Source: a bacterium (GTDB lineage Bacteria; Patescibacteriota; Minisyncoccia; UBA6257; JAUSGH01). Taken from it: DNA of 64,000 bases. Within the stretch, counting starts at the first letter, position 1; each line of letters begins with the position of its first letter. The notes below the pieces were generated by a model. The model was given only the letters and a program-made list of their open reading frames with translations. It did no database searches and was not told the origin of the DNA. The stretch spans positions 1,854-65,853 of the forward strand of contig JAUSGH010000007.1 of assembly GCA_030649055.1 (NCBI GenBank), read 5' to 3'. Below, in pieces: positions 28,607-59,496 of the stretch. Both the position numbers and the translations under genes were made by a program.

Positions 28607-30115
28607 TCACGCCGTCTCTGTCTTTAGCAATCGCATTTTTTCCGTCAACAGCACCAATCCCGCCGCGACAAAAATGAAATAGATCGGCTCAAATGCCATT
28701 CTCATCCGCGCGTCAATCGCGGCGCCAATAGGCAGCGTGACGACAACAAAGAAAAGGATAAGTGCCGCAAAGAAAAACGCAGAAATCCTCCGCCTTTCAG
28801 GCACCTCCTTTAAGAAAGGAGGAATCGGGGGCACTTCTCCCTTTCCTAAAGGGAGTACCCGAAGGCCGGTGAATTTTAAAAAACGAATCCAAAAAGGTGC
28901 CCGTGGGCTTGAGGGATTTGCAAAAAGCACCCAAGTGCCGCAGATGGCGCAAAACAACAAAAATGACCAAATGGCTCGCATAACGAATGGAATCACATAC
29001 GTCCCGCGTATATACGGAATAATCTCGCCGATTGCGCGCAACGGATGCTCTTGCAATAGCGCCATGGAAAGCGGAATCGGCGGCCGCTTCGGGTACGGTA
29101 GCAACCGCATTTCATTCAGCATCGTCAACAGATTGTCATGCGTAAAAATTGTATAGACGGAGAGCGGCTGAAGCAGCATCATTTGCAGCGGGTATTGTTT
29201 GAAAATCGCAAGCGCGCGTTTTTTAAGTTCCGGCGCGACCCGCGGGTCATACAACTCTTCGTCGGTACCGCGTGCCGTCACTCCATCGCGTCCGAGTTGT
29301 GTGAGAAAGTTATTAAATACGGGGTTAAATTGCTGATTCGTTGCCGCGGCGTATACCGTCGCCCCGAGGCGCGTGTACACGTTGTACCAACCCGACGTTG
29401 AAAGCGTAAACACGCCGAACACGCGTTCGTTGCGCATCATCCACGGGAAAATAATGAGGAATGAGGGGATGAGGAACAGCACGCAAGCCGCTATCGCACT
29501 TTTCCAATTGCGCCACGCAAGTGGAAAAATAAGGAAGATGATCACGATCGGCAAAAAATAAAGAAAGTACGGCCTCGTGATTGAGGAAATTGCGAAAAGC
29601 GCTCCCGCAACAACCGCGCGGCCGGGTGTTGGGATGTCCAAGTAGCGCACAACTGCCACCGCAAACAACGCAAGAAGAAAAATAAAAATGCCCTCGGTCG
29701 CGATACCGACTTGATGATAAATAAGATGCGGTTCAACGGCGGTCAAAAACCCCGCAACATACGCAACGCTCCTGCTCCCCGACGCCTTCCACGCGAGCCA
29801 GAGTATCATAACCGGCACGAGCGCGTTCAGAAATACTTGGAAAAGATTTGCCGGCCAAAACGTCCCGAACACTTTATAAAACACGGCGAGGAAAACAGGA
29901 TAACCGGGTGTGCGGTACGCATCCGGCGCGTACGGCGCGACAGCGCTCAACGAAAACCCGTGACCCTCGACGATATTTTTCGCAAGCGTCGTGTAATGCG
30001 TCGCGTCAACGAGATATAACCCCTCGGGTCCCGAACGCCAGATAAAAAAATCGAATGCGGCAAGGCGCAGGATGAATGCGAAAAGAAAAATGGTGATGAG
30101 CGCACGTTTATCCAT
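28607..30115 (-). CDS. GT-C membrane glycosyltransferase, family 39/83-like (ArnT/PMT-like), paralog 2
   Basis: Polytopic, ~13 TM helices, with the ArnT-like loop (Y.TLAKN...GHGFS...P.A...YRTPGYP). Start set at the internal Met (MDKRALI) because the longer ORF runs into repeat element 30134-30205. Confidence 0.7.
   Translation of the reverse strand: MDKRALITIFLFAFILRLAAFDFFIWRSGPEGLYLVDATHYTTLAKNIVEGHGFSLSAVAPYAPDAYRTPGYPVFLAVFYKVFGTFWPANLFQVFLNALVPVMILWLAWKASGSRSVAYVAGFLTAVEPHLIYHQVGIATEGIFIFLLALFAVAVVRYLDIPTPGRAVVAGALFAISSITRPYFLYFLPIVIIFLIFPLAWRNWKSAIAACVLFLIPSFLIIFPWMMRNERVFGVFTLSTSGWYNVYTRLGATVYAAATNQQFNPVFNNFLTQLGRDGVTARGTDEELYDPRVAPELKKRALAIFKQYPLQMMLLQPLSVYTIFTHDNLLTMLNEMRLLPYPKRPPIPLSMALLQEHPLRAIGEIIPYIRGTYVIPFVMRAIWSFLLFCAICGTWVLFANPSSPRAPFWIRFLKFTGLRVLPLGKGEVPPIPPFLKEVPERRRISAFFFAALILFFVVVTLPIGAAIDARMRMAFEPIYFIFVAAGLVLLTEKMRLLKTETA
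28783..28856. repeat. Palindromic element, family D (AAATCCTCCGCCTTTCAGGCACCTCCTTTA-NN-AAAGGAGGAAT plus a second hairpin CTCCCTTTCCTAAAGGGAG), located inside the coding sequence of paralog 2
   Basis: Read directly. Copies at 56479-56522 and 57260-57337. Carries Shine-Dalgarno-like AAAGGAGGA. Translates in-frame as FLKEVPERRRIS here and as KSSAFQAPPLAKEE in 55928..57304. Confidence 0.65.
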
Positions 30116-30133
30116 AATATTTTCTATATGTAG

Positions 30134-30205
30134 CCCTTCGATAAACTCAGGGACTATTATTTCCTGAGCAAAGGTCCGATGAACATCGGACCGCAATCGA
30201 AGGAA
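30134..30205. repeat. Palindromic element, family C (CCCTTCGATAAACTCAGGG ... TCCTGAG-N27-TCGAAGGA)
   Basis: Read directly, between two minus-strand membrane protein genes. Confidence 0.6.
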
Positions 30206-30211
30206 TACCTT

Positions 30212-31978
30212 TTATAACTGATAAAGATAAATATCGTTATCAAAATCCCCGATAAGCAGCGGGCGATGAAGCGACTCATAGACCCAATCTTTCAATGGCC
30301 CGTCGGAGGCAACGTAATCAACGCGATAGCGCCGCAATGCCTCAAGAAAATCCTCATTCATAAACTCCGTAAAATCCTGTTCGCGCGCGCGAAGCAACCC
30401 ATCAATCCATCGCTCGTCAAAAAATACAAGATCGCGCCAATCCCGGCGAAAATGATCGCGGATCCACGTGCGATGTTCTATTAAAAACGCGCGGACGGTA
30501 CGCGACGTCACACCGTTCACGCGCATGAGCGTCAAAATATTATGCAGCACGCGCGCTTCCGCGTTATAACTCGCTTGCATCCACCCGTTCGCGTAGTCAT
30601 TGCACTGCGTAAATGCGGGTATGAGCCGCGTCAGCTTTTCCTCCACGCCTTCAGCGGAAAGCACGACGCAATCGTCAGGAGCATTCGCACGAAGCCACGA
30701 AAGCACGCCGTCGTATGTTTGAATGGAACGGAACTCCGGAATTTGATACGCGTATGTCCGCGCCGCCATAACGCCGTAGAAAAGCGCGAACGCCGAAACG
30801 CCGAGCATGCCCGCGGCCCATAATCTCGGAAGCCGCGGCCGAAACACGAAAGCGAGCGCCGCCATAACGGCAACAACGGCAAGCGGCGTGGTGTATTGCA
30901 CGAAGTGGTACGGCCAGATCGTTTTTCCGGTTATGATCTGCTGATTCAAGGCCCAAAGTCCGCCCAAAATAAGCGCGGAGCAAAACCACCACCGGTGAGG
31001 AAGCGCTACTCCCTCTCGTTTGCTCTTGCGGTACGCGGCGATAAGACATGAGATGAATATGAGCAACGCGAGAAATAACACCTTGTTCGCAATGGGCGCG
31101 TGCGTCAAGAGCAACCCGTTCTGCGCGTATATCCGGTCAGCTTCAGGAATCGCCGCCACCGCGCGCATGTTGTACCAATACGGAGCGGCAAGCATGAACC
31201 CGACGGCAACGGCGAGCGCGAGCCGTTTAAGAAATGTGTAGTCACGCAAGACAAACGCAATGGCGCCGAGAACTCCGGCAACCGAAAGCGCCATCCCCCA
31301 TGTAAAAAAATATCCGAACATCAGCGCGAACACGGCACCCGCGGCAACAACGACGCCAACGCTCGGGCGGCGCATCAGTTGCCACAACAAAAGCAAGAAT
31401 GTAAAAAGCAGTATCGCGCCCGTCACGGGATTCACCGGCCTGGCCCAAAGCGACCACGCGAAAAATTGCGCCTTGCCGTTTAAAACCGGCAAAAGACTAT
31501 TGTAGTCCACAAGACCGTAGCCGGTAGTCGCGAGCAATCCTCCGGCAACGCTGGCGAGCTTTCGCGCGTACTCCGGTTCCGCATCGGTCAGTCGGTAAAG
31601 CAATATATAAATCAAAAAAAACAAAACCGCGGGAAAGAAAAATTTCGCGAAAATAAGCGCGGAGACAAACGATGCGCCAAAGAACACCGGCCACATATAC
31701 GCATATTCGCCGATGGGATACAAGAATGGCGGGGCGTTTTTGTATTCATATATAAATGGCGAGCTCACCCAACCATGGCCATCCAGAATCTCGTGCATGC
31801 GCGCGACATAAAAACTGTTGTCATCCAGCGTCAAAAGATGAGCGCCTTTATAATCAGCGCCTAACGCGCGGATGGCCAACAGTTGTGGAGCAACCGCAAG
31901 TCCACCGACGACAACAGCAAAAAGAAGCGCGATCCAATGGCGCTGAAAGAAAAATTTTATACGTGCAGCGTAACTCAT
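30212..31978 (-). CDS. Large polytopic membrane protein with a C-terminal soluble domain; putative GT-C-type glycosyltransferase or glycan polymerase
   Basis: 588 aa, ~14 hydrophobic helices in the first 400 aa, then a ~180-aa hydrophilic domain. No named motif recognised. Confidence 0.4.
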   Translation of the reverse strand: MSYAARIKFFFQRHWIALLFAVVVGGLAVAPQLLAIRALGADYKGAHLLTLDDNSFYVARMHEILDGHGWVSSPFIYEYKNAPPFLYPIGEYAYMWPVFFGASFVSALIFAKFFFPAVLFFLIYILLYRLTDAEPEYARKLASVAGGLLATTGYGLVDYNSLLPVLNGKAQFFAWSLWARPVNPVTGAILLFTFLLLLWQLMRRPSVGVVVAAGAVFALMFGYFFTWGMALSVAGVLGAIAFVLRDYTFLKRLALAVAVGFMLAAPYWYNMRAVAAIPEADRIYAQNGLLLTHAPIANKVLFLALLIFISCLIAAYRKSKREGVALPHRWWFCSALILGGLWALNQQIITGKTIWPYHFVQYTTPLAVVAVMAALAFVFRPRLPRLWAAGMLGVSAFALFYGVMAARTYAYQIPEFRSIQTYDGVLSWLRANAPDDCVVLSAEGVEEKLTRLIPAFTQCNDYANGWMQASYNAEARVLHNILTLMRVNGVTSRTVRAFLIEHRTWIRDHFRRDWRDLVFFDERWIDGLLRAREQDFTEFMNEDFLEALRRYRVDYVASDGPLKDWVYESLHRPLLIGDFDNDIYLYQL

Positions 31979-32043
31979 AACCGGCGTCCTGCGCCATTCG
32001 CATTATTTACCCTCATTCGCATTACAGTTCGACAGTGCTCACT

Positions 32044-32099
32044 GTCATTATACCCTGAGCTTGTCGAAGGGTTCGCGATTACTCCTCCCGTTAATGACT
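32044..32099. repeat. Short palindromic element with GTCATTA...TAATGAC termini and a CCCTGAGCTTGTCGAAGGG core (family B/C hybrid), overlapping the 3' end of the GT2 gene
   Basis: Read directly. Confidence 0.5.
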
Positions 32100-33013
32100 T
32101 CCGACACAATCCCGATGGGCCGATGTTTCACTTCTTCATAAATCCTCGCCAAGTATTCCGCGATAACCGAAAGCGAGAGTAGCTGTACCGCGCCCAAAAA
32201 TAACATGAATACGAACATGGTGAGGTATCCTCGCGGCGCCGGGAAAAAGAAATACAACGCGGTATAGACGACAATCGCAATGCCCGCGAGAACCGTCACG
32301 ATTGCCGCGACATACGAAATAAGCTCCAGCGGTTTATACGAAAATGCGACAATCATCCGCTTCGCCCATTTGAAAAGCTCAAAAAAACTGTTAGTGCTTA
32401 CTCCCGAATACCGTTCATCACGAGTATACGGAACTCCGATAGAACGGAAGCCAACATACGCACGCATACCGCGAATATAACGATCAACTTCGCCAAAGCC
32501 ATTGATGACGTCGAGCGCCTTCCGGCCAATGAGCGAAAACTCGCCCGCATCCAATGGAATGTCGATGTAAGACATCTTGCGGAACACGCGGTAAAACGCT
32601 TTATAGAAAAACCGCATGAGCAAACTCGCCTTCCGCCGCGTCCGACGCCCATACACGATGGTGTATCCCGCAAGCCATTGCTTCACAAATTCCGGAAAAA
32701 GCTCCGGCGGGTCCTGAATGTCACCGTCCAAAAGAATCACCGCGTCGCCGTCCGCGTAACGCATGCCGGTGGTATACGCCACCTGTCCGCCGAAATTGCG
32801 CGAATGATTCAATACAATGAGATGTTTGTCTTTTGCCGCGATCTCGCGAAGTACGTCCAGGGCGTTATCCGGACTCGCATCGTTCACGTAAATAAGCTCC
32901 CAATTCGGCGTAATGCCGCGCATCACTTCCGTGACACGCCGGTGCATTTCTTTGACACTCCCCTCGTCATTCCAGCAAATAACGATGATGGAAATTTTTT
33001 TATCGGTGAGCAT
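32048..33013 (-). CDS. GT2 polyprenyl-phosphate glycosyltransferase with C-terminal membrane anchor (GtrB/ArnC-like)
   Basis: 321 aa. ISIIVICWNDEGSV, DXD motif LLDGDIQDPP, two C-terminal TM helices. Confidence 0.8.
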   Translation of the reverse strand: MLTDKKISIIVICWNDEGSVKEMHRRVTEVMRGITPNWELIYVNDASPDNALDVLREIAAKDKHLIVLNHSRNFGGQVAYTTGMRYADGDAVILLDGDIQDPPELFPEFVKQWLAGYTIVYGRRTRRKASLLMRFFYKAFYRVFRKMSYIDIPLDAGEFSLIGRKALDVINGFGEVDRYIRGMRAYVGFRSIGVPYTRDERYSGVSTNSFFELFKWAKRMIVAFSYKPLELISYVAAIVTVLAGIAIVVYTALYFFFPAPRGYLTMFVFMLFLGAVQLLSLSVIAEYLARIYEEVKHRPIGIVSEVINGRSNREPFDKLRV

Positions 33014-33099
33014 AGTTTTATTACCTAGTCATCATAGCGGCTTTATACGGTTGCCGTATGCGGCACATGAACCAATGATGCCGCAAAAATTGCAAGAAA

Positions 33100-34263
33100 T
33101 CAAACACAAGCGATGCGTTGGAGAAGTTGCTCAAACGCCTTTGCCGGCTCATGATAATCAAGCTCTTCGACGCGCGCGAATCCTTTTTCGATCAACGCGC
33201 CGGCAAGCGCTTCGTCATTCATCAACGACCCGATTTTTTTTGCCAAGTCATCAGCATTCTGATCCTCAAAGGCGAATCCCGCGTCACCCGTAAACCATTG
33301 TAACGCTCCGCCCCGTGGAACAATCGTCGGCACGCCGACGCCCATGGAATACACCACGAGCGCCGAGGCGATTTCCGGACGCCAGCACGGCAGAATAAAA
33401 CAATCGGCACGCTGCAACTGCGCGTACAATTCATCCATAGAAAGCCAGCCGGGAAATTCAACCTTGTCCGCGACGCCAAGATCGTGGGCAAGTTTTTGAA
33501 GTGGCCGGAGCTCCGGTCCGTCGCCGGCGACGACAACGCGAACGCGCTTGCGTTCCGGCATTTTTGCGACCGCGGTGAGCACAAGGTCAAACCCCTTCTC
33601 CCACACCATCCTGCCTCCGGTAAAAATAGTGAACTCGCCTTCTTGTCGCGCGCGGACAGCGCGTTTATGCCGAAGTATGTCTTCCGCGTCAAGAAAATCA
33701 AAGATAAAAAAAGATTTTTTCACGTCAAGCCCGAATCGGATATAACGATCACGGAGCATTGGCGAACAATATACGAAACCGTCAATATGATTCGCGAGAT
33801 AAATGCCGATTGTTTTTTCAATAACATATCGGATATTTCGCCGTAGCTCTGCGAACGTCCGCGTCACGGAAAACTTCTCTCTTCTTTTACGAAAAGGTGG
33901 GAAGGAAGTTTGTTCCCGGTTCAAGCCCGCTACAACCGGAGTTCGCCCCCCGAGCATGCGGTACAGCCCCGCGCCATACAAAGACACTGTACCATCAACG
34001 TGAAATACGTCCGCGCGTTTCTCGTATTTTTTAAGCATTCCGTACACACCATAATGGATGGCGAGCTGCCCCGAAGTGCCGATACGCTCCTCAATAACGG
34101 GGTATGCCGAAGGAATTGCCCCGCGGTTAATTCCGGGAAAAAGCGTGACGACAGTCACGTTGTGACCAAGCGCTTTCAATGCCCGCAATTTCAGATCAAG
34201 TTCCGGCGTTGAGTATCCTCCGGTTTCAAAATTAAGTTTTGTGGTAAAAAAGATGATGCGCAT
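33100..34263 (-). CDS. GT4 family glycosyltransferase (GT-B, group 1)
   Basis: 387 aa. C-terminal EGFDLVLTA...VVAGDGPE...VEFPGW..........D.FILPC..E.......YSMGVGVPTIV pattern of GT4. Confidence 0.8.
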   Translation of the reverse strand: MRIIFFTTKLNFETGGYSTPELDLKLRALKALGHNVTVVTLFPGINRGAIPSAYPVIEERIGTSGQLAIHYGVYGMLKKYEKRADVFHVDGTVSLYGAGLYRMLGGRTPVVAGLNREQTSFPPFRKRREKFSVTRTFAELRRNIRYVIEKTIGIYLANHIDGFVYCSPMLRDRYIRFGLDVKKSFFIFDFLDAEDILRHKRAVRARQEGEFTIFTGGRMVWEKGFDLVLTAVAKMPERKRVRVVVAGDGPELRPLQKLAHDLGVADKVEFPGWLSMDELYAQLQRADCFILPCWRPEIASALVVYSMGVGVPTIVPRGGALQWFTGDAGFAFEDQNADDLAKKIGSLMNDEALAGALIEKGFARVEELDYHEPAKAFEQLLQRIACV

Positions 34264-34273
34264 ATGCGTGCCG

Positions 34274-34342
34274 TCATTCTGAGCAGGACGAAGAATCTCT
34301 AAGAGATCCTTCGGCCCCGTTTAGCGGGGCCTCATGATGACC
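34274..34342. repeat. Palindromic element, family B (GTCATTCTGAGCAGGACGAAGAATCTC ... GAGATCCTTCGG ... CTCATGATGAC); its terminus supplies the last codons and stop of the GT2 gene
   Basis: Read directly. Confidence 0.55.
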
Positions 34343-35042: not shown

Positions 35043-35048
35043 GGTATG

Positions 35049-35147
35049 TGTCATTCCGGGCTTGACCCGGAATCCAGTACACCTAACTTTATAATCATAT
35101 TCTGGATTCCCGCTGGAGTTTATCCGCCTTCGGCGGGCGGGAATGAC
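35049..35147. repeat. Family A palindromic element, ORF-less copy (GTCATTCCGGGCTTGACCCGGAATCCAG - 24 bp - CTGGATTCCCGCTGGAGTTTATCCGCCTTCGGCGGGCGGGAATGAC)
   Basis: Both halves match the termini flanking the GIY-YIG gene at 26786-27144. Confidence 0.65.
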
Positions 35148-35165
35148 AGATGAAACGAAACCGCG

Positions 35166-36248: not shown

Positions 36249-36266
36249 CTTCTTACTCCATACTTC

Positions 36267-37181: not shown

Positions 37182-37220
37182 AAAAATGCAACAAATATCA
37201 TATAGACAAGAGTTATACAG

Positions 37221-38141: not shown

Positions 38142-38158
38142 CTTCAAACACTGACGCC

Positions 38159-39193: not shown

Positions 39194-39202
39194 AACGCTA
39201 CC

Positions 39203-41038: not shown

Positions 41039-41045
41039 ACTATTT

Positions 41046-43381: not shown

Positions 43382-43394
43382 AGTGAGGCACTTT

Positions 43395-43479
43395 GTCATT
43401 CCGGACTCGATCCGGAATCCAGTTTGCCAAGTCCTGGATTCCCGCTGGAGTTTACCCGCCTTTGGCGGGCGGGAATGAC
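43395..43479. repeat. Family A palindromic element, ORF-less copy (GTCATTCCGGACTCGATCCGGAATCCAG ... CTGGATTCCCGCTGGAGTTTACCCGCCTTTGGCGGGCGGGAATGAC)
   Basis: Read directly. Confidence 0.65.
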
Positions 43480-43482
43480 ACG

Positions 43483-46463: not shown

Positions 46464-46465
46464 GG

Positions 46466-46500
46466 CAATATTTGCTTAATTGCTTAATTGTTTTATTGCT
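46466..46500. repeat. Short tandem octamer repeat (GCAATWAA-like units; reverse complement reads GCAATAAAACAATTAAGCAATTAAGCAA) at a gene junction
   Basis: Read directly. Similar octamer runs at 39169-39192 (GCAATAAA x3) and 50636-50672. They encode ...AIKQ termini. Confidence 0.5.
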
Positions 46501-48122
46501 TTAACGACCATCGTTGGTCCATTCGACCGAAGCGCGAACATTTTCAATAGTCCACCGCCGAAACCGTTCGTGATGTCATCGGAGTTATCCGCAGAGCCCG
46601 AAAATATTCCAACAGTTTCGCCTAAGCTCGCGAGATGGTCGGAAATGCCATACCCTGCAACAAATTCCGGACTATACAGAAGATACGCGTAATCATTCGC
46701 CTGCATATATTCGGAGAGATGGTCGGTGAATGGGCCGGGCTGCGCGGCGAAAAGATTCAGCGCGTGGTAGCGCGGCGAGGGCAGCAGCTCCTCCGGCAAC
46801 GCTTCAGTCGCCACGTCCGCGCTCCGAAGCGAGCCGGGGTCAAGGCGTCGCTGTTCTTGAACCGCATCGGCGGTCGTGGGAATCCGCATCAGGCGCGCGA
46901 ATGTAACCACTTTTTCTCCGGCTGGAACATTTGCCGCAGTCCACTCTGCCGCCTGCACGCGCGTATCATTTTTGAGAAGCAGCGAGTCAAACCGCAGCAC
47001 TCCCGCCGCCATCGTTCCAAACACAACGACACCAAGGCCATACGCAAGAAACCTTGAACGCGCCGCAATCCACATAGTTGCTTCGTGCATCCCGTACCCC
47101 GCGACAAGCGCGAACAGCGGATAAAGCATCAGGATGTACCGGTCCATGTGAAAGAAGAACAAGTAGAAGACGGCGATATAGGCGAAAGAAAAGAGCGACG
47201 CAACCGCAAAAAACCTGCGCTTGCGGAGGAATGCGTAAAGCAACCCCGCAATAATAAACACGAAAAACGCCGACTCCGTTTCAATGAGCTTTTTTGCATA
47301 AAATCCGTATCCCGCGAAAAATCCAATAATGCTCTTTGCTCCCCCAACAACATTCTCCGCGTGCACCACAAGTCCCCCGGGATAAAGCGCGTAAGCCAGT
47401 GCCACAAGTGCCGTAAAAAGCAGCGCGCTCCCGTAAACCCACCGCTCCCTCAAAGACAGCCGGTCATACAACAAAAACCACAGCGCGATAAACAACGCCG
47501 AAAGTCCGGCCTGGTAGTTGATACCGACACCTATGCCGGCAAAAAGCGTGGCGAGGAGGTAGCGCCGCCGCGCCGCAATATCAGCGCGGGAAAGCACGTA
47601 CATGACGAGCGCAAAGAAAAACGTTGCCGGAACCCAATGTCGCGCCCAATGCGAAAAATTTGCATGGAGAAAACTTAATGCCAAAAATGCGGCCGAATAT
47701 AGCGCGGGCGCTTCCGCCGCAAAAACATTCTTCCCGATTTTATAAACAAGCCAAACCGTCGCGGTGCCGAGGACGACACTCGCGAGACGCGCGGCAATAA
47801 AAAGCGCCGAGGGGTCAAGCGTTGTTGCGGAAATAAACTGCGGGAACGTCCCGGAAAACAGCAAATATTTTATCACGAGCACGGGAATAAAAAGTACAAG
47901 GTAGATGTAGGAAAGATATGGCGGAAAATAGAGAATGCGCCCGAACTCCGCGGCATGAAGCGCCGGCACTAGGCTACGGAGCTCCATCATCTTTAGCGCT
48001 CCAAAAATAAACGGCGGCTCGTCCGAGACAAGCCACATCGGCAAACCGTAAGAAATCCCCGCAAGACGCACGAAAAACGCAACCGCGATAATCAAAAGTA
48101 ACGCGATTTTGAAGCGAGACAT
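46476..48122 (-). CDS. GT-C membrane glycosyltransferase, family 39/83-like, paralog 4
   Basis: 548 aa polytopic. N-terminal SYGLPMWLVSDEPPF and ArnT/PMT-like helices. Confidence 0.65.
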   Translation of the reverse strand: MSRFKIALLLIIAVAFFVRLAGISYGLPMWLVSDEPPFIFGALKMMELRSLVPALHAAEFGRILYFPPYLSYIYLVLFIPVLVIKYLLFSGTFPQFISATTLDPSALFIAARLASVVLGTATVWLVYKIGKNVFAAEAPALYSAAFLALSFLHANFSHWARHWVPATFFFALVMYVLSRADIAARRRYLLATLFAGIGVGINYQAGLSALFIALWFLLYDRLSLRERWVYGSALLFTALVALAYALYPGGLVVHAENVVGGAKSIIGFFAGYGFYAKKLIETESAFFVFIIAGLLYAFLRKRRFFAVASLFSFAYIAVFYLFFFHMDRYILMLYPLFALVAGYGMHEATMWIAARSRFLAYGLGVVVFGTMAAGVLRFDSLLLKNDTRVQAAEWTAANVPAGEKVVTFARLMRIPTTADAVQEQRRLDPGSLRSADVATEALPEELLPSPRYHALNLFAAQPGPFTDHLSEYMQANDYAYLLYSPEFVAGYGISDHLASLGETVGIFSGSADNSDDITNGFGGGLLKMFALRSNGPTMVVKAIKQLSN

Positions 48123-48141
48123 ATGATAACTATAACATCCC

Positions 48142-49419: not shown

Positions 49420-49706
49420 ATTGTTGAATTATAGAATAACAATATAACAAAAGACAAGGCGGACGGGTCACACGTCGCCACCATCAATAAGGATAAGTCA
49501 CCGTACTCATTTTTTGCAGCATATTGGAGCGATGCGTGAAATTCCCGAGTAAAGAAATCACGAAGTCGGAACAATGGCGCTGTATGAATCCCGAAGTCCG
49601 CCTAAGGCGGGCGGAGGTTGAGTTCGCCTTGTTCCGTCACCTTCGCGATTTTTTACGAGGAGAATTTCCGCAAGCGGAAATCGTTGCAAAAAATGGGCGC
49701 GGTGAC

Positions 49707-50639
49707 CTATCCGGACAACTTCTTGTATGCCTCGATAACCCGCGACAATCCCGTTTTATAATCTATCTTCGCCTTCCATCCCAACGCATTGATTTTGGAA
49801 GTGTCGGCGATAAAGTTACCAACGCCCACCGCGCGGTGAAACGCCGGCGGTTCCATTTGCACAAGCTTAGAACGCCGTCCGGTATACTCCAACACATAGT
49901 CCATCATTGTCCTAAACTTCACCGGCGAACCATATCCGATCAAAAACGTGTCGTTCTTGGCATGTGACTCCAGAAATCGCAGGGCGTCAATAACATCATT
50001 CACATAAATATAGTCGCGGTAAAAACTTCCGTCGCCATACATGGTCACCTCCTCGCCCTTCACCGCGCTCATAATAAGAAAACTCAAGGCGCCCTTCTTC
50101 TTTTGCGTAAAATCCTCCCCTTCGGCATACACATTCGTGAGACGCGTAATGAGGTACGGGATGTCGTACAGCCGCGCGTAGAGCTTGATAATGCTTTCGG
50201 CGCAAAGTTTTGTCGCGGGGTAGAGCGCCCGCGGGTCCGTCGCGCTTTCTTCGTTCACGGGTTTGCCCCCGCTTTTATCGCACGTGTTACCGTACACAAA
50301 AAACGTGGAGGGATAGATGACGAGCGGTTTTTTTGCCATATCCTTCACCAGCTCCAGCAGCCGAATGGTCCCTTTGAGGTTGGTGTCAACGTCAATATAC
50401 GGGTTATCAAGCACATGATAATTGTGCACCGTGCTCGCGCAGTGATAGATGACGTCCGCACTGTCTATGTCCGCGGCTTCAAGCGCGTTGAGGTCTTTCA
50501 ACACAATCCGCGCATCTTTTCGCGTCAGCCGATCTTTAGGGGCGCCGGCGCGGTCAATCACGGTCACATCCCCCTCCACGCTATTTGCAAGCAATGAGCC
50601 GATAAGCCCGAGCCCTCCGGTTATAACGTATTGCTTCAT
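49707..50639 (-). CDS. NAD-dependent epimerase/dehydratase (SDR)
   Basis: Rossmann motif YVITGGLGLIGSLL, YPATK catalytic motif. Start set at MKQYVITGG; the 13 upstream codons overlap the octamer repeat. Confidence 0.75.
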   Translation of the reverse strand: MKQYVITGGLGLIGSLLANSVEGDVTVIDRAGAPKDRLTRKDARIVLKDLNALEAADIDSADVIYHCASTVHNYHVLDNPYIDVDTNLKGTIRLLELVKDMAKKPLVIYPSTFFVYGNTCDKSGGKPVNEESATDPRALYPATKLCAESIIKLYARLYDIPYLITRLTNVYAEGEDFTQKKKGALSFLIMSAVKGEEVTMYGDGSFYRDYIYVNDVIDALRFLESHAKNDTFLIGYGSPVKFRTMMDYVLEYTGRRSKLVQMEPPAFHRAVGVGNFIADTSKINALGWKAKIDYKTGLSRVIEAYKKLSG

Positions 50640-50643
50640 TGCT

Positions 50644-51420
50644 CTATTGCTTAATTGCTTTATTGCCTTCCATTTCAAATATCGGAAACTTTTTTATGCC
50701 AAGCTTGTACAAAATATACTTCACCACCACGCGGAGCGAGTTTAATCCGTATTTCACGCTGCTTTTAAAATTCACCGATGACGCTTCCTTAAAGTACCGC
50801 GTGGGGATCGCCACCTCCGCAACGCGGAATTTGCCGATCCGCAACTGCGGAAATACCTCGGCGTCAAACATAAAGCCGTCGGAATTGTCGTTAAACGGAA
50901 TTGTCTCCAAAACTTTTCTGCTATACGCGCGGTACCCGGTGTGATATTCGGAGAGACCCAGCCGGAACACCGAATTCTCAACAAGCGAAAGGACGATATT
51001 GGGAATAAATTTCCAGATCGGCATTCCCCCTTTTAGGGCATTGCGCTTCACCGCCATACGCGAACCGAACGTCGCGTCCGCCCGGCCTTCGACAATCGGC
51101 CGAACCATTTCCGGAATAAGCGACGGGTCATACTGATAATCCGCGTGGAGCATCACCACAATATCGGCGCCATCCTTCAACGCCTCGTTGTAACACGTCT
51201 TTTGGTTTGCGCCGTACCCGCGATTCACCTCATGTACGATGGTCTTGATACCCAGCGATCGGGAAATCTCCGCGGTGCGGTCACCCCCACCATCGTCGCA
51301 CAAAATCACCTCATCCACCCAATCAAGAGGAATGGCGCGGTACGTTTTTTCAACGGTTTTCTCGGCGCGGTACGCGATCATACATACCACGACTTTTTTG
51401 CCATTTGCGAGGCGGGTCAT
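50644..51420 (-). CDS. GT2 polyprenyl-phosphate sugar synthase-like glycosyltransferase
   Basis: 258 aa. VVCMIAYRAE, ILCDDGGGD, MLHADYQYDP DXD region. Confidence 0.8.
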   Translation of the reverse strand: MTRLANGKKVVVCMIAYRAEKTVEKTYRAIPLDWVDEVILCDDGGGDRTAEISRSLGIKTIVHEVNRGYGANQKTCYNEALKDGADIVVMLHADYQYDPSLIPEMVRPIVEGRADATFGSRMAVKRNALKGGMPIWKFIPNIVLSLVENSVFRLGLSEYHTGYRAYSRKVLETIPFNDNSDGFMFDAEVFPQLRIGKFRVAEVAIPTRYFKEASSVNFKSSVKYGLNSLRVVVKYILYKLGIKKFPIFEMEGNKAIKQ

Positions 51421-51423
51421 ATT

Positions 51424-52284
51424 CTAAATAGGCTTCCTTTTACCATCAATTTTTTTCTTCTCCATCCTCTCTAGTTGTTTCACCTCTTTCTTCACTTCTT
51501 TAATGTGTTTTTCTGTTGGCAGATACTCTGGCGTCGTCCCACCAATTTCCTTAATGGTCTGCCGGACTTTTCCGCCCACCATAAAATGTGTTTGGGCGGC
51601 CAAACTTTCTCCTTGTATGTTATCCTTTTTTAATTTCTCATCGGTTTGAGTAATACGAAACAAATTAGCCGCCAACTCGGTAGAACCAGCCCTATCTAAT
51701 AATTCTCCCTTGTTTATTCCCTTTCTACGTTCAATCTCCGATAATGGCATCCCATAAAGACCTCTATATCCAGCATCATTAAACAACCCGAACTTGCTCA
51801 CCCCAGCTTGCCTTGCCGTCTTGAAAAGTTTCTTGTTGTAGTCAGATACTTCGCTGCGAATGAATAATCTCTTTTCGGCATCGGGTAACTGTTCAAAAAC
51901 TTCCTGCCTTCTTGTCTGAATAGCAAAATAGGTCTGAGCCATCGCTATTTCGATTTTTTTAGGGTCTCCATTCTGAGCAATAAGATAGCAGGCGTAGCGA
52001 TCGAGTTTATAATTGACCACTTCTCGAACCGTATTTGAGCCAATATTGACCATTTTACTGAGCTTAGTAAAATGGTTATCCACATCCTGACCGCTGTTAA
52101 TACAAGCTCTAGCCGCTCTCGCAATCACATCCTCTGCATTTTGCCATTTTTCATAACCCAAAATAGGCAACAACTCCCGCGCATCCCAATACTCAACCCC
52201 ATTCTCGTCAACATTTTTGATGCCCTCAAAATCCTTATGAATGCTTGGCGGCGCTATTTCATTGGTCATAAGTTTATTTTGCAC
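51424..52284 (-). CDS. dinD: DNA-damage-inducible protein D homolog (DinD family)
   Basis: 286 aa, colinear with E. coli DinD: RYACYLIAQNGDP, AQTYFAIQTRRQE, EKRLFIR.E, GSTELAANLFR.TQTDEKLK, VGGKVRQTI.E.GGT.PE.LPT. GC ~43%, well below its neighbours. Confidence 0.8.
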   Translation of the reverse strand: MQNKLMTNEIAPPSIHKDFEGIKNVDENGVEYWDARELLPILGYEKWQNAEDVIARAARACINSGQDVDNHFTKLSKMVNIGSNTVREVVNYKLDRYACYLIAQNGDPKKIEIAMAQTYFAIQTRRQEVFEQLPDAEKRLFIRSEVSDYNKKLFKTARQAGVSKFGLFNDAGYRGLYGMPLSEIERRKGINKGELLDRAGSTELAANLFRITQTDEKLKKDNIQGESLAAQTHFMVGGKVRQTIKEIGGTTPEYLPTEKHIKEVKKEVKQLERMEKKKIDGKRKPI

Positions 52285-52304
52285 ATTAAAAAGAAAATTT
52301 GCAA

Positions 52305-52346
52305 TGTATAAAAGGATCGGCCGCGGAGAGATTCTCTCCGCGGCCG
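52305..52346 (-). terminator. GC-rich hairpin (CGGCCGCGGAGAGA / TCTCTCCGCGGCCG) with adjacent U-tract; terminator candidate after the RHH gene
   Basis: Read directly: arms at 52318-52331 and 52333-52346. AT-rich tract 52307-52316. Confidence 0.45.
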
Positions 52347-52354
52347 TACGCTAC

Positions 52355-52567
52355 TTACGTCACGATGACGAGCTCCTTCAGGATGGACTTGGCATCCCGC
52401 GAAGAGATGACGAGACGCTTGCCCTCGTCCTTCGCCTTCTTCGCTTCGTTGAGAAGCGCGATCGCCATCCGGAAGACTGCTGCCTTGGACTTCTTTCCGA
52501 ACGCTACGCGGAGCTCTTCGAGCAGAGCGTCCACCTTGTCATCCACCTGCATCGTAAACATCTTCAT
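52355..52567 (-). CDS. Small ribbon-helix-helix-like DNA-binding protein (CopG/Arc family candidate)
   Basis: 70 aa from MKMFTMQVDDKVDALLEELR. Beta-strand then two helices. Good RBS GGAAGGAG 8 nt upstream. The longer ORF to 52834 is a GC-rich read-through artefact. Confidence 0.45.
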   Translation of the reverse strand: MKMFTMQVDDKVDALLEELRVAFGKKSKAAVFRMAIALLNEAKKAKDEGKRLVISSRDAKSILKELVIVT

Positions 52568-52635
52568 CGTATTCTCCTTCCAATACTGGCCCGGACAATA
52601 TCCGCCGCAACAAAGTGCTGCGAGCGGCCCCGTAG

Positions 52636-53160
52636 CTACAGGTTTCCCTTCACGCGCCGACTCTCCAACCGCCGCCTGAACCATCCGCGCAGCCCGAGGA
52701 TATCCAGGATCGGAAACGCGATGGTGAGGATGAGGTCCGCCACCGCGAGCGACGGCCTCGGGATTCCCCACGCAATGTGGTGCTTGACGCCCCGCTCGCG
52801 GCAGAGCCACCACACGCGCGGGAAATGAAGCCACGTAGAGATGACGACGAGCATCAACCGTTCACGTCTCGCCACATCCAACGCGTAGTCTAATTGCCCC
52901 ATGGTCTCGTACGCCTCGCGCACTACGACGAGATTGCTGATGCCAAGCTCCTCCGCCGCCGCAACGTAGATGTCCTCCTCGTGCCGCTCTCCGGCAACCT
53001 GGAGGTTGCTCAAGATAAGCACGGGTGCCTGTCCGTACCGTGGCTGGAGTCGCTTGGCCAGCACCATACTCCTGTACCAGTCCTGCCACGTCCTCGGCCC
53101 GACACGTCCTTTCGCGCAAGGCCCCTTGGTCAACGGAAGAAGAACAAAATTCTCTTTCAA
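52636..53160 (-). CDS. DUF218 (YdcF/ElyC/SanA-like) domain protein with C-terminal hydrophobic segment
   Basis: 174 aa. APVLILSNLQVAGE...EDIYVAAAEELGIS..NLVVVREAYETMGQLDYA...RLMLVVISTWLHFPRV matches the DUF218 core pattern. Confidence 0.5.
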   Translation of the reverse strand: MKENFVLLPLTKGPCAKGRVGPRTWQDWYRSMVLAKRLQPRYGQAPVLILSNLQVAGERHEEDIYVAAAEELGISNLVVVREAYETMGQLDYALDVARRERLMLVVISTWLHFPRVWWLCRERGVKHHIAWGIPRPSLAVADLILTIAFPILDILGLRGWFRRRLESRRVKGNL

Positions 53161-53266
53161 CGCGCACCTCCTTTTGTTGGCTTGATTCCTCTACAAGTGC
53201 TGACAAGAGGATAGCATTTTAGAATAACGGGGTCAACATCTTTGCCATATGACATCAAAATGAAAC

Positions 53267-53298
53267 GGACCGTACACCTCCGAAGAGATGTACGGTCC
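53267..53298 (-). terminator. Hairpin (GGACCGTACA-N12-TGTACGGTCC) downstream of the Ubl gene
   Basis: Read directly; followed on the minus strand by GTTTCATTTTGAT. Confidence 0.35.
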
Positions 53299-53322
53299 GT
53301 GCTGGTTCTGACTTCCGGCTCG

Positions 53323-53571
53323 CTATGAGCCCCGCGGGCGCTCCGACACGGCGACGACGGGCTTGTCCTTCGCCTCCAGCGCGTCCTTCGGACCCACGTG
53401 GGTCGTGAGCTTGGCCGGCTTGCCGTTCATCGTGAGGTCCATGTTCTTCACGTCGATCCCCGCGGCCTCGCACACCTCCGCGACAGAGGCGCCGCTCTCC
53501 TCGACCTCGACGTCCTTCGTGGTGCTCTTGCCTTGCGTCGGTACCACCTTCACTTTGATCTTCATCGTCAT
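53323..53571 (-). CDS. Small beta-grasp ubiquitin-like (MoaD/ThiS-like) protein, C-terminus ...ERPRGS (no terminal GG)
   Basis: 82 aa. MKIKVKVVP....K.VEVEE..SVAEV....GID.....L..NGKPA pattern of Ubl/ThiS-fold proteins. Directly upstream is an E1-like gene. Confidence 0.45.
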   Translation of the reverse strand: MTMKIKVKVVPTQGKSTTKDVEVEESGASVAEVCEAAGIDVKNMDLTMNGKPAKLTTHVGPKDALEAKDKPVVAVSERPRGS

Positions 53572-53636
53572 CTCCTTCCGATAATGAAACGGAACTACCG
53601 GTCTCCGATGCGTTTCCTCCTTTCATTCTCACAGAC

Positions 53637-54299
53637 CTAGTCAATCATCTCCATGACGCCGGTCAGCGCCTTGTGATGGCGCTTCTTCTTTCCATGCTGC
53701 CACCAATATACCAGATCCGCGGCAACTGCGGAAGCAGCACTCATTGATGCGTACACGATGCCATGTCTCCCGCACATCGGATGCGCGGTTTCCTTGGTCG
53801 TATACGCAAGATGATGTTCGTAGTACGCAATGTCGTCCGGATCGCACGGAGCGATAGCAAAAACCCAGACGAGCTCCTCGGCAGTCCGCGTGTCGATCAA
53901 AATGTCCACCCTGGGTTGCATCTTGACGTTACGCCAAACCGCCTGCCGAGCTTCCATGGTATCCACACAGCACACCACTGCGTCGCGCAGCGGCTCGTTC
54001 TCGTAGAACTGCCGACGGGCATCAATGACGACACCCGACGCTTCCAGAACGATGTCGCGCAACGCTTCCACCTTCGGCCGGCCAAGGTCACACGGCCGGT
54101 AGACGGACATCGGAATGTTGTGCGATTCAACGTAGTCGTCGTCGATGACCGTGAGTTTCGTTACTCCCATCTTGGCCAAGGTGACGGCAACGTATCCGCC
54201 GACGGCACCCGCGCCGATGATGGTTACGCTTCTCGCAGTCATCGCGTTGAAGAGGTTGTGCTGTCCCGAGAGATTCATCGTCGGTTCTACCACGGTCAC
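53637..54299 (-). CDS. ThiF/MoeB/HesA-family E1-like adenylyltransferase (minimal, ~220 aa)
   Basis: VTIIGAGAVGGYVAVTLAKMGV..LTVIDDDYVE.HN nucleotide-binding motif, GRPKVEAL; candidate Cys in HPMCGRHG. Confidence 0.75.
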   Translation of the reverse strand: MTVVEPTMNLSGQHNLFNAMTARSVTIIGAGAVGGYVAVTLAKMGVTKLTVIDDDYVESHNIPMSVYRPCDLGRPKVEALRDIVLEASGVVIDARRQFYENEPLRDAVVCCVDTMEARQAVWRNVKMQPRVDILIDTRTAEELVWVFAIAPCDPDDIAYYEHHLAYTTKETAHPMCGRHGIVYASMSAASAVAADLVYWWQHGKKKRHHKALTGVMEMID

Positions 54300-55771
54300 C
54301 TCCTTTCGTCAGGTTCGGCCAGCCACTCCTCCAACGGATGCAGTGTGGTCTCCGGCGTATAGGTGTTAAGCCAACGCATGACGACGAGCGCCGCCTCCGC
54401 GAAACGGAACTCACTCATGTACTTCGCGATGGCAACCGTCGCATTTCCGAAGCAAGCCAAACTAATCCGGCTGACGTGCGGATGATGGTGCCCAAGCGAA
54501 TGCCTCGGCGCCTCGCTCCACACTCCGATCTTGCCGTTCGGGTCCAGACGGATCGTAAACGGTCCCAGATTGTACCGGCGGCCGTTGTCTTCCAGGATGA
54601 TGTCCGTGGTCACAATGTGCACGCCACTATCGACAATGCGCACTGCCGCCACGCCATCCATCTTCGTAATCTCGTCAAGTTCCATCGGAAGACGCTTGTG
54701 CAAGCCACGGACGAATTCCGAATCCTGCATCGTCTTCACGCGGAGGGTGAACAGCTGTTGTTTGCGCGACTCATCCGCCAATTTATCCTCCGCGTCCTGA
54801 ATATCGGCGGACGTCACCTGCATCGCCTCGAGAAGAACAGCAAGCACCTTCTGATCGTGCAGCTTGTCTGCCAGCTCGTTTTCCTCGCTCCGAATCAAGG
54901 CATTAATGCGTTCCAGCGTTGTCTGAAGCTCTCCCAGAATCGCAGCGGCTTGGATAATGACAAACCCCGAAAAGTCCTCGGCGTTCGTCTCCACGATCGG
55001 TTCCGTTTTTCTGTCGGACGCTTTCACGAGATCACGATACATGCAGCCGAGCAGCTTGCGGAAGATCGTCTCACGCGCCGCCTCGCCGTGAAAAGCGGTA
55101 TGCGTAAGACAGAGCTGATAATAGTTGGATCCGAGCACCTGGAAGATTGGGGTTACGCCATCAATGATGAGCCGTCCCCGTCCGCGAGTAGGCATGTTCA
55201 CAAGACGCGTCTGCCCGTCCTCCCACACCTGAACTCCGAAAAGCGTTTCCACCACCATGCCGGAATTGTAAACACCGGGCGGACGGGCCTGGCAGAAGAG
55301 ATGCACCGTTCCAGCTTTCTCCGAGAACGGCGGGTTGCTAATGGTGGTACTGTAACAGTAGACGAAGTGCAGACCGGCAAAACGCGAGAGCGCCTCCACC
55401 TGCCGCATGTCGGACTCCACCATCGGCTTCGCTTGGATGAACCCGCCGGACGTAGGTGTTTCGTCCACGTTGAGCAGCTCGGCATTCGGCTCTTTTGCCA
55501 CGAGCAACGCGAATGATGCGACATCAATCTCGCAGGATTCGAGCACCAACTCACGTCCCTGCTCGCGGCCGCGCCGCTGCAACATCTCCACCGCTTCGTT
55601 GCTGGCCGCCTCACCGGTGAAGGTGAGAAGGTCCACGATGATGTCAAAGTCATTGGAAACCACCGTCACGCGCTTCGTCGCAGTAGCCGTCGGCAGCTCA
55701 ACCCCGAGCCACCGCATGATGAGCACCGGCACCGCGAAGGCGTACCCGGATTCAAACAGTGGGCTTGTCAT
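54296..55771 (-). CDS. Large protein of unknown function with a C-terminal E2/UBC-like active-site motif (HPHVSRISLAC); candidate E2-like conjugating enzyme fusion
   Basis: 491 aa. C-terminal GHHHPHVSRISLACFGNAT resembles the UBC HPN(V/I)...G.ICL catalytic loop. Start codon overlaps the E1-like gene by 4 nt. The antisense 392-aa ORF is Arg-rich junk. Confidence 0.35.
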   Translation of the reverse strand: MTSPLFESGYAFAVPVLIMRWLGVELPTATATKRVTVVSNDFDIIVDLLTFTGEAASNEAVEMLQRRGREQGRELVLESCEIDVASFALLVAKEPNAELLNVDETPTSGGFIQAKPMVESDMRQVEALSRFAGLHFVYCYSTTISNPPFSEKAGTVHLFCQARPPGVYNSGMVVETLFGVQVWEDGQTRLVNMPTRGRGRLIIDGVTPIFQVLGSNYYQLCLTHTAFHGEAARETIFRKLLGCMYRDLVKASDRKTEPIVETNAEDFSGFVIIQAAAILGELQTTLERINALIRSEENELADKLHDQKVLAVLLEAMQVTSADIQDAEDKLADESRKQQLFTLRVKTMQDSEFVRGLHKRLPMELDEITKMDGVAAVRIVDSGVHIVTTDIILEDNGRRYNLGPFTIRLDPNGKIGVWSEAPRHSLGHHHPHVSRISLACFGNATVAIAKYMSEFRFAEAALVVMRWLNTYTPETTLHPLEEWLAEPDERR

Positions 55772-55927
55772 TTCAAACTCTCCTTCATGTCAAAGGGCTG
55801 TTTCATCGCCGCGAGTACACCTCGCACGATGCTGGCTAAATAATAATGAAATAAAAGGCGGGCGTCAAGCCGCTGCAGAGTTGCTCGCACCTTCGCCATT
55901 CACACGATATTCGTTATACTGAAAGCG

Positions 55928-57304
55928 ATGAAAAGCCGCGCTATCCTCTATATCCTCCTCGCCGCCGCGATCCTTGTCGCAGTCGCGGGATTTGTTGCTG
56001 ACTTCAAAAATACCGCCTTTTATGGCGGCGTGGACCTGCGTAACCGCGTCACCGCCGCGCGTGTCGCTCAAGAGTTAAAACAAGACCCGTATTTTTATAA
56101 ATGGTCGCCCAAAGAAAGCGACCGCTATCTTGATCCATCAGACAACACAGCAATCCCCGTCGCGCGCGTGACGGTGCCTCCGACCGTATTGCTTTTCCAA
56201 AACCTCATCTCGGCGCTCCCCTACGGCACCCAACGGTGGATTTGGTTTGCATTCCAATGGGCCGCGCTTATTGCGTCGCTCGCACTCCTCGCACAATACG
56301 TCTATCGCGTCAGCGAAGAATCATGTGCAAAGCGCAACCGTTTACTCGTCATAACGCTTGGATTGCTATTCATTTCCGGAAGTTCTTTTTGGCGGCTCCA
56401 TGTTGAACGCGGACAAATATATGTGTGGTATGTATCGCTCTTCAGCGCAGCGCTTTATTTATACAGTCGAGCAGAAGAAAAATCCTCCGCCCTTCAGGCA
56501 CCTCCTTTAACAAAGGAGGAATATGAGTGGCTTCCGCTCGCCGCGAGCGGACTCATTCTCGGCTACCTCATCAGCTTGCGCCCGCCGTTTATTTTTGCAA
56601 TTATCCCGTTTCTGCTTTATAAAAAATTCAAATTTGTATCATTCGTCGCTGCCGGCGCGCTAACAAGCGTCCTTATCACCGGATTATTTTTCCCGTTCGC
56701 GCTATGGAAAAGCTACGAACAATCGGCCACGTTTCAAGGCGCGATGCGTACGGATGCGGCAACGAACTTCACATCAGTTGGCGTTGATGTCGCCGAAGGC
56801 ATGAACATTCACGAATTCTTGAGCGTGCCCGGAGAAGACAGCTCGCTCCAACGCATCATCCGTGGTGCAACAGGACAATGGGTAGGAAGCGCGACGCTGG
56901 CGCTGCTGCTTGTTATCACAACCGCGCTTCTTGCGTTTTTTATGTATCGTTTCCATCCGTCGCTTTCTGTAGGGACAAATGATTTATTTCTTGCCGGCAT
57001 CGCATTTACCATGCTCGCGGAATTATTCATTCCCGCTCCGCGCTGGCCGTACGCGGACGTCATCTGGCTTATTCCTTTGGCATTGCTCGTACAAAAACTA
57101 AGCACAACGACACGCGGCACGTTACGCAGCACCGTGCTCGGCCTCATGCTTACGGGACTCATGCTTAATACCGGAGTACATGGCATCTCCCGGCTTACAC
57201 TCCTTGGCGAAGGTCTGTTTATCGGGGCATTGCTTCTTGCGCTTTTGAGTAAGGAAAAGAAATCCTCCGCCTTTCAGGCACCTCCTTTAGCAAAGGAGGA
57301 ATAA
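55928..57304 (+). CDS. Polytopic membrane protein (DUF2029/GT87-like or other GT-C-type candidate), containing two in-frame family-D element copies
   Basis: 458 aa, ~12 TM helices. Family-D element translated as EEKSSALQAPPLTKEE (internal) and EKKSSAFQAPPLAKEE (C-terminus). Confidence 0.45.
   Translation: MKSRAILYILLAAAILVAVAGFVADFKNTAFYGGVDLRNRVTAARVAQELKQDPYFYKWSPKESDRYLDPSDNTAIPVARVTVPPTVLLFQNLISALPYGTQRWIWFAFQWAALIASLALLAQYVYRVSEESCAKRNRLLVITLGLLFISGSSFWRLHVERGQIYVWYVSLFSAALYLYSRAEEKSSALQAPPLTKEEYEWLPLAASGLILGYLISLRPPFIFAIIPFLLYKKFKFVSFVAAGALTSVLITGLFFPFALWKSYEQSATFQGAMRTDAATNFTSVGVDVAEGMNIHEFLSVPGEDSSLQRIIRGATGQWVGSATLALLLVITTALLAFFMYRFHPSLSVGTNDLFLAGIAFTMLAELFIPAPRWPYADVIWLIPLALLVQKLSTTTRGTLRSTVLGLMLTGLMLNTGVHGISRLTLLGEGLFIGALLLALLSKEKKSSAFQAPPLAKEE
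56479..56522. repeat. Family D element copy (AAATCCTCCGCCCTTCAGGCACCTCCTTTAACAAAGGAGGAAT) inside the coding sequence
   Basis: Read directly. Confidence 0.65.
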
Positions 57305-57337
57305 CAACAGGACGCATTCTCCCTTTTCTAAAGGGAG
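57260..57337. repeat. Family D element copy with second hairpin (CTCCCTTTTCTAAAGGGAG), spanning the stop of 55928..57304 and the 3' end of 57328..58689
   Basis: Read directly. Confidence 0.65.
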
Positions 57338-58753: not shown

Positions 58754-58755
58754 AC

Positions 58756-59496
<741 letters not shown>

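Follow-up and report, generated by a model that had tools for sequence, protein, structure and literature searches.

The whole 64,000-nucleotide (nt) stretch of contig JAUSGH010000007.1 that we analyzed (the window, to which all copy coordinates refer) carries three copies of a short palindromic repeat in genes for GT-C glycosyltransferases. We posit, with good confidence, that this repeat is a tolerated, peptide-encoding, non-autonomous element and that an intergenic family of the candidate phyla radiation (CPR) has entered these genes in-frame three times. In the proposed model, the family resides in intergenic DNA of CPR/Patescibacteria-type genomes, and the three copies would have entered the GT-C genes once this lineage had separated from its closest sequenced relatives. 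They would have survived because the net length change is a multiple of three, because the reading frames used have no stop codons, and because two of the positions are inter-helix loops and the other forms the C-terminal tails of a convergent gene pair, where extra residues do no harm. The inserted copies would then be transcribed and translated as a passenger peptide.

The repeat is built from a 43-nt module, AAATCCTCCGCCyTTCAGGC-ACCTCCTTTAnnAAAGGAGG-AAT, found three times in the window. The module begins with a conserved 9-mer (AAATCCyCC), continues with a small stem-loop of variable sequence (GCC-TTTCA-GGC in the window), and closes with an 8-bp hairpin that is conserved, CCTCCTTT-Ann-AAAGGAGG, plus a trailing AAT. 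The initial annotation had counted three occurrences, and indeed the 30-nt core AAATCCTCCGCCTTTCAGGCACCTCCTTTA lies on the + strand at 28783, 56480 (with 1 mismatch), and 57260, against an expectation of 0 in shuffled sequence. BLAST and nhmmer searches with every element form as the query found no further copies within the 64 kb.

The three sites first reported stand, while their boundaries have shifted. Copy 1 (28783..28921, + strand, 139 nt) consists of a forward module (28783-28825), an inverted second module that bears the second hairpin, hairpin B (28835-28876), and a partial third arm, also inverted (28898-28921), ending GAGGGATTT (...GGGCTTGAGGGATTT). Copy 2 (56480..56523, + strand) is a lone 44-nt module in a 59-nt window-specific block at 56485-56543. 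Copy 3 (57260..57362, + strand, 103 nt) joins a forward module (57260-57303) through a 12-nt linker to an inverted module (57316-57362), and this inverted arm contains hairpin B (57319-57337), a small hairpin (CCGCTTGCGG), and the end GGTGAGGGATTT. The termini of copies 1 and 3 are inverted (AAATCCTCCGCC ... GGTGAGGGATTT); copy 2, being one module, has no second end. Hairpin B (CTCCCTTTyCTAAAGGGAG), first described as an optional second hairpin, is present only at 28837-28855 and 57319-57337, that is, in copies 1 and 3. It belongs to an inverted, diverged second copy of the module, since the arm that bears it, when reverse-complemented, aligns (nhmmer) to the same 43-nt module as arm A. The various element forms fold with z-scores of -2.3 to -6.8.

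The stop-free translations reported for each strand are correct, and they fall in long open reading frames (ORFs). On the + strand, copies 2 and 3 read KSSA(F/L)QAPPL(A/T)KEE, inside or ending the ORF at 55928-57304, which encodes a GT87/DUF2029 glycosyltransferase (+ strand, 458 aa, MDO8584877.1). The copy 1 translation comes from the - strand, FLKEVPERRRIS / ...PPFLKEVPERRRIS, within NPSSPRAPFWIRFLKFTGLRVLPLGKGEVPPIPPFLKEVPERRRIS, inside the ORF at 28607-30196, a GT-C glycosyltransferase gene of the PMT_2/GT39 type (- strand; NCBI MDO8584853.1 is the 502-aa form). The element-encoded peptides are thus KSSAFQAPPL... and ...PPFLKEVPERRR. A third gene is also involved: a convergent PMT_2/GT39-type GT-C gene (57328..58689, - strand) takes its C terminus from the 3' arm of copy 3. 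The best homologs of the host proteins come from Candidatus Harrisonbacteria and metagenome contigs, and the best hits of the source genome are Candidatus Harrisonbacteria and Taylorbacteria, which makes it CPR/Patescibacteria-like.

All three sites are empty in syntenic relatives, whose proteins share 65-74% identity with those of the window; this comparison had been proposed at the outset, and the segments are missing at both the protein and the DNA levels. At copy 2, 18-19 residues (SALQAPPLTKEEYEWLPLA), translated as part of KSSALQAPPLTKEEYEWLPLA, are missing from the GT87 homologs P0002 (73% identity), P0003 (65%), and P0004 (66%). Alignment to the syntenic contigs L003, L004, and L006 leaves a clean gap of 54-60 nt, and relative to L003, the block at 56485-56543 is a net gain of 54 nt (18 codons). 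The site is a loop between two transmembrane (TM) helices of GT87, and the length of this loop also varies among remoter homologs. At copy 3, the GT87 and PMT_2 genes of the relatives overlap convergently by ~80 nt (L003 1957-2039; L004 4268-4347), and it is exactly at this overlap that the window has ~103-110 extra nt in the DNA alignment. Copy 3 encodes the last 14 residues of GT87, KSSAFQAPPLAKEE, together with its TAA stop (57302-57304), and the 3' arm encodes the last 11 residues of PMT_2, KNPSPQAVPSL, together with a TAG stop in the loop of hairpin B (57328-57330); both C-terminal tails are unlike the ortholog tails. At copy 1, 46 element-encoded residues stand against an 11-aa basic loop (LKAKDRLQKMY-like) between two TM segments in four orthologs (P0085-P0088; 74-40% identity), for a net gain of 37 aa in the window protein, and the DNA alignment to L026 and L027 shows a clean gap of ~110 nt. 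The last two TM segments downstream of this insert remain conserved. Because downstream protein sequence is conserved at each insertion, the host genes look intact. A candidate homology between LKEVPERRRIS and the native loop LKAKDRLQKMY was dropped, the DNA of LKEVPERRRIS being 100% element consensus.

Could these segments instead be an ordinary conserved peptide motif of membrane proteins or an artifact in a metagenome-assembled genome (MAG)? They are stop-free when translated, and both MDO8584853.1 and MDO8584877.1 are annotated as intact genes by NCBI. However, no ortholog has the motif. Conservation of the peptide in distant orthologs, which the initial annotation had named as the sign of an ordinary motif, was looked for with a 47-aa element peptide among 1.84 billion representative proteins; phmmer returned only the self-match, so no protein motif is involved. 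Six-frame element peptides joined into a 396-aa query had no match at E<=10 among 5.8 billion proteins, a design too weak to be informative. Furthermore, opposite strands are read in the different host genes, the repeat is intergenic in other genomes, and frames and downstream conservation hold across all junctions, unlike in chimeric joins. A motif or artifact is therefore largely refuted already, and we give it a negligible chance.

Structure prediction offers a view of what the inserts may look like. In an AlphaFold2 model of GT87 (predicted template modeling score, 0.85), the copy 2 insert extends two helices with a predicted local distance difference test (pLDDT) score of 62-75, next to flanks at 94-96, and the element-encoded tail has a pLDDT of <50. 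The model of the GT39 host, made from 5 sequences, was unusable (mean pLDDT, 48).

Where does the family live outside the window? Exact-core scans covered one-genome-per-species contigs, metagenome contigs, and viral contigs. The core occurs at 2 loci in genome contigs (one MAG of Candidatus Taylorbacteria, the other labelled Elusimicrobiota) and at 19 loci in metagenome contigs; once duplicate contigs are removed, these represent 17 distinct copies, and further divergent ones exist. All 17 are intergenic and lie on CPR-type contigs, with no ORF of >58 codons reading through any of them. The exact core was absent from the viral contigs, and blastn found none in phage and plasmid collections.

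The element varies in size from 44 to 175 nt. Most of the outside copies are embedded in a ~175-nt element with 16-nt terminal inverted repeats (TIRs), CTTTGAATTACGAAAC/GTTTCGTAATTCAAAG. This form folds as a full-length palindrome (z = -6.8), and its flanks are exact 7-bp duplications in L024 (AACATAA) and L018/L022 (ATAATTT), the flanks of the remaining copies being merely similar and AT-rich. It is a miniature inverted-repeat transposable element of the classical kind (MITE). A tolerated, peptide-encoding MITE was among the possibilities first listed for the window repeat, and it is the one that the data favor, given orthologs that are free of the segments, an intergenic and MITE-like existence elsewhere, and a peptide conserved nowhere else. 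Within one locus (L007 1576-3529, the same as L013), two inverted MITE cores with 107-nt arms that are 94% complementary bracket 1.74 kb containing no ORF of >153 aa, which could be a composite element or non-coding cargo.

The modules are arranged in several ways. The ~175-nt form runs hairpin B, GCCGAGGGATTT, a 9-nt loop, AAATCCTCCGCC, and hairpin A, whereas in the window, as in the Taylorbacteria copy, the order is reversed, A then B. Single modules are seen in window copy 2, L002, L008, L011, L014, and L017; inverted doublets occur in both possible orders, and window copy 1 has its additional partial arm. On the Taylorbacteria contig (L001), module-like repeats occupy several intergenic gaps of an 8-kb stretch. 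This arrangement is the mosaic architecture of repetitive extragenic palindromic (REP) sequences and bacterial interspersed mosaic elements (BIMEs). Modules from the window, from the Taylorbacteria contig, and from contigs with the MITE type are 93-98% identical to one another, in contrast to 65-74% for the nearest host orthologs, so that either the insertions are recent or the sequence is constrained at the DNA level.

A structured functional RNA, either ribozyme-like or regulatory, is another way to read these forms, which would be circular permutations reflecting a conserved fold. Such an RNA would fit the identical helices in two permuted orders, the fold z-scores given above, and a small stem-loop that varies yet always pairs (GCC/GGC, GGC/GCC, CCGC/GCGG, CTCCGAT/ATCGGAG). 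We nonetheless consider it very unlikely. The “permutation” is more simply explained by a single module placed in its two possible inverted arrangements, which REP/BIME clusters also show, and a circularly permuted ribozyme was dropped as a candidate after arm B was found to be an inverted module copy. The copies also lie in both orientations relative to genes, and the TIRs and target duplications show mobility at the DNA level. Rfam offered no match even at lax thresholds: none at the gathering threshold for the window and 16 loci and none for the element at E<=10, apart from noise such as miRNA/snoRNA models. AAATCC resembles a T-arm, and a tRNA/tmRNA scan found nothing at the element.

The core also resembles a Shine-Dalgarno (SD) sequence, and internal translation starts had been suggested on that basis. 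If the element were a translation signal, the SD, alternately hidden in an anti-SD hairpin, would drive or regulate initiation inside the glycosyltransferase genes or in downstream genes. Indeed, AAAGGAGG is a perfect SD, its hairpin partner CACCTCCTTT equals the 16S anti-SD, the 5' AATCCTCC could alternatively pair with GGAGGAAT, and the ATG reported after copy 2 is present (56523-56525, + strand). That ATG, however, lies 3 nt past GGAGG, is shifted to the +1 frame with respect to GT87, and opens an ORF of only 46 codons. Among the 25 other exact-core hits, read in either orientation, none has a start codon at 2-15 nt past GGAGG that opens an ORF of 40 codons or more, and no copy offers a usable start, such as the in-frame start ~5-10 nt past the SD that marks a functional ribosome-binding site. 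Moreover, with respect to its host gene, copy 1 has the opposite (antisense) orientation to copies 2 and 3.

What is conserved instead is the hairpin. In 26 variants of the module, pairing of the 8-bp stem holds in 97.5% of cells, and two stem pairs show compensatory changes (CG/UA 16:8 and UA/CG 13:11). The stem reads CCTCC/GGAGG, CTCCC/GGGAG, or CCCCC/GGGGG (the last in L021, L025, and L009), and both arm B and the CCCCC variants keep it without GGAGG. Since both sides of the stem vary while pairing is kept, it is the palindrome that is conserved and not GGAGG. Judged from the sequence, the SD/anti-SD look would most likely be incidental, a by-product of the CCTCC/GGAGG palindrome, and we hold a translation signal to be highly improbable.

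How does the element compare with known systems? Rickettsia palindromic elements (RPEs), reportedly described by Ogata et al. (2000 Science 290:347; 2002 Genome Res 12:808), are the functionally closest known case. PMC10969869, citing Ogata 2000, 2002, presents RPEs as palindromic repeats that lie in-frame within conserved genes of a reduced genome. Both kinds are ~100-150-nt palindromic repeats lying in-frame in conserved genes of reduced, gene-dense genomes, and both add a peptide without destroying the ORF, at structurally permissive positions; as with RPEs, the window repeat lies in-frame in conserved ORFs and is missing from the orthologs. However, the window element is in all likelihood of a different family by sequence and host; its CPR-type host belongs to another phylum, so that membership in one of the RPE families is not expected. 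It has 3 coding copies so far versus dozens for RPEs. Elsewhere, most copies of its family are intergenic, and some relatives bear clear TIRs and target duplications. Both of its orientations would be translated, and one copy gives the tails and stops of two convergent genes. In sum, the window repeat is a new family of a known, RPE-like kind of element; literature searches turned up neither this family nor any account of in-frame repeats in CPR.

Several other repeats are known to fuse in-frame with host ORFs on occasion, namely, enterobacterial repetitive intergenic consensus (ERIC)/repeat unit (RU) elements, Coxiella QMITE1, Correia, and Nezha. Precedents include intragenic ERIC/RU elements (PMC2759123) and QMITE1 (PMC5896051). 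Like other bacterial MITEs, the window element is small, non-coding, and multi-copy, with TIRs and a fold-back structure: the inverted repeats are the 16-nt ones of the ~175-nt relatives and the inverted ends of copies 1 and 3, the window contains 3 copies against 17 distinct exact-core ones elsewhere, and no transposase lies within. Among the window ORFs of 22-62.5 kb, there is no transposase domain that would mark a parent insertion sequence. Unlike the ~175-nt relatives, the window copies have neither the outer TIR, for which CTTTGAATTACGAAAC gave one chance-level match only in the window, nor a visible target duplication.

The REP, BIME, and REPIN (REP doublet forming a hairpin) elements of proteobacteria share a short imperfect-palindrome module that occurs singly, in head-to-head and tail-to-tail doublets, and in mosaics with variable linkers, and in both cases the repeats are usually extragenic. 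REPINs lack classical TIRs and 7-bp target duplications. In contrast, one relative form of the window element has both, and the window copies are intragenic; the module starts with AAATCC and has no conserved 5' GTAG, and there is no REP-associated tyrosine transposase (RAYT) in the 22-62.5 kb scanned. Palindrome-associated transposable elements (PATEs), derived from IS200/IS605, are similar in having subterminal hairpins, in the lack of visible target duplication at the window copies, and in a left end adjoining a conserved pentamer, AAATC, that pre-exists at two of the three empty sites. The difference is that AAATCC also occurs in the inverted arm, which makes it part of the module and not the target alone, and no TnpA/TnpB is nearby.

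The same junctions raise the question of how the copies arrived. Identity to the AAATCC end of the element is found at the empty site for two of the three junctions, with AAAAATC already in L003 (copy 2) and the 10-nt CGGAGGATTT already in L026 (copy 1). This match could reflect a target preference (IS200/IS605-like), replacement assisted by homology, or a coincidence, as lysine codons are A-rich. It is also the one hint of a recombination site, the remaining possibility first listed for the repeat. In L026, the native loop DNA of the ortholog at ~2480-2510 (GTAAAGGATGGGCAACGGAGGATTTAC) has two blocks, TAAAGGA and CGGAGGATTT, in common with the reverse complement of the module at 28783-28812, which may be a coincidence, a preferred target, or a decayed older insertion. 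We infer that a transposase acting in trans moves the copies. The relatives with TIRs and 7-bp target site duplications point to a DDE-type enzyme; for the window-type doublets, which show no such duplication, a single-strand route like that of REP/RAYT or IS200/IS605 is an alternative, as is recombination.

Several observations weigh against the idea of a tolerated mobile repeat. No target site duplication is visible at the three window copies compared with the empty sites, and a domain scan found no transposase or RAYT among the window ORFs of 22-62.5 kb. At copy 1, ~18-20 nt of the native loop were lost in the alignment to L026 and L027, which simple cut-and-paste insertion leaves unexplained. 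All three copies lie within GT-C genes of one glycan locus, which could exceed neutral tolerance, and the source-genome count of three covers the 64-kb window. The compensatory stem changes represent few evolutionary events, and the translation and function of the modified host proteins are presumed. The evidence covers three coding copies, and nothing in it favors a function beyond tolerance.

Is this gene family a repeated target? A second, unrelated palindromic family, GTCATTCC-palindrome-GGAATCCAG, often in inverted doublets, is present in the window at 26785-26814, 35048-35148, and 43393-43480, where it occupies intergenic gaps and the ends of genes. One such repeat contains the end of the GIY-YIG ORF at 26788-27105, with the tail LDSGSSPE. 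In a sister genome, the ortholog of the copy 1 host (P0085, on L027) has this second family inserted in-frame twice (L027 2108-2172 and 2945-3010), giving the insert peptides LSFPRTRESRVLVEGLDSRFRGNDRK and, at the C terminus, HSRECGNPGLMTLDPRVKPEDD. With two families in one gene, in-frame repeat insertion seems to recur in these genomes.

Might the insertions then be adaptive? They could remodel the loops and tails of surface-glycan enzymes, or copies 2 and 3, as direct repeats 780 nt apart, could cause deletions that turn GT87 off, as a device for phase variation or diversity. The concentration of all three copies in GT-C genes of a single glycan locus would fit, as would the two in-frame insertions of a different repeat family in the sister genome and the sequence that the empty sites have in common with the end of the element. 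Recombination between copies 2 and 3 would leave an in-frame truncated ORF ending ...KEE*. Nevertheless, three copies in one genome are a small sample, and at 95% coding, most insertions must strike genes, with the loops and tails of polytopic membrane proteins being permissive places. A 44-nt repeat with two mismatches is also a poor recombination substrate. We therefore judge adaptation to be unlikely.

Taking the tolerated-repeat account further, one can ask whether CPR palindromic repeats routinely colonize coding sequence, especially the loops and termini of surface-glycan GT-C enzymes, as a recurrent source of new peptides, C termini, and stops. This would be an RPE-like mode of protein evolution in a second, unrelated reduced-genome lineage, with insertion maybe guided by homology to the AAATCC end. 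We propose that CPR genomes have so little intergenic space that repeats would colonize coding sequence; the generalization as a whole is a speculative one, and we are more inclined to doubt it than to defend it. In-frame “protein-coding palindromes” have so far been treated as a peculiarity of Rickettsia, and with a second clear case, selfish repeats would seem to supply peptide insertions in general where intergenic space is scarce. The assets of the present case are the empty-site proof, one element that ends two convergent genes, and the other repeat family in the same sister-genome gene. There are practical consequences as well: in CPR MAGs, protein families and annotations become inflated and distorted by such segments, and gene callers can be misled by the SD-like cores.

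The surroundings of the copies are densely coding. The window is ~95% coding (fraction, 0.95), with a median intergenic gap of 21 nt, and its part from 22 to 62 kb is a locus for glycan biosynthesis that comprises GT2, GT4, and six GT-C genes along with sugar-nucleotide enzymes. Directly upstream of GT87, this locus is broken by an island (51424-55771) that encodes a Bro-N protein, a ThiF-family protein, and, all without a Pfam match, three small ORFs and a 491-aa protein; relatives have DUF218 and a ParE toxin pair at this position. The island may be a mobile or defence island.

Other repeats are scattered through the window. A 52-nt unit, TTCGCTCAGGGAATAAAGATCTTAGTTCCTGAGTTTATCGAAGGACAACCTT, is perfectly duplicated in tandem at 24576-24679, between the GT2 and methyltransferase genes, and diverged copies of it lie nearby at 24471-24522 and upstream of the NTP_transferase gene at 58707-58758. 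Runs with a 9-nt period (TATAGGTCC / TATAAGACT ...) are found 56 kb apart, at 3201-3257 and 59502-59549; the latter overlaps the 5' end of the NTP_transferase ORF (MRRSLYRINRTYKSNRTNTT...), so this ORF may be called too long. Finally, runs with an 8-nt period (TTGCTTnA) mark gene junctions of the glycan locus at 854-892, 46464-46510, and 50623-50677.

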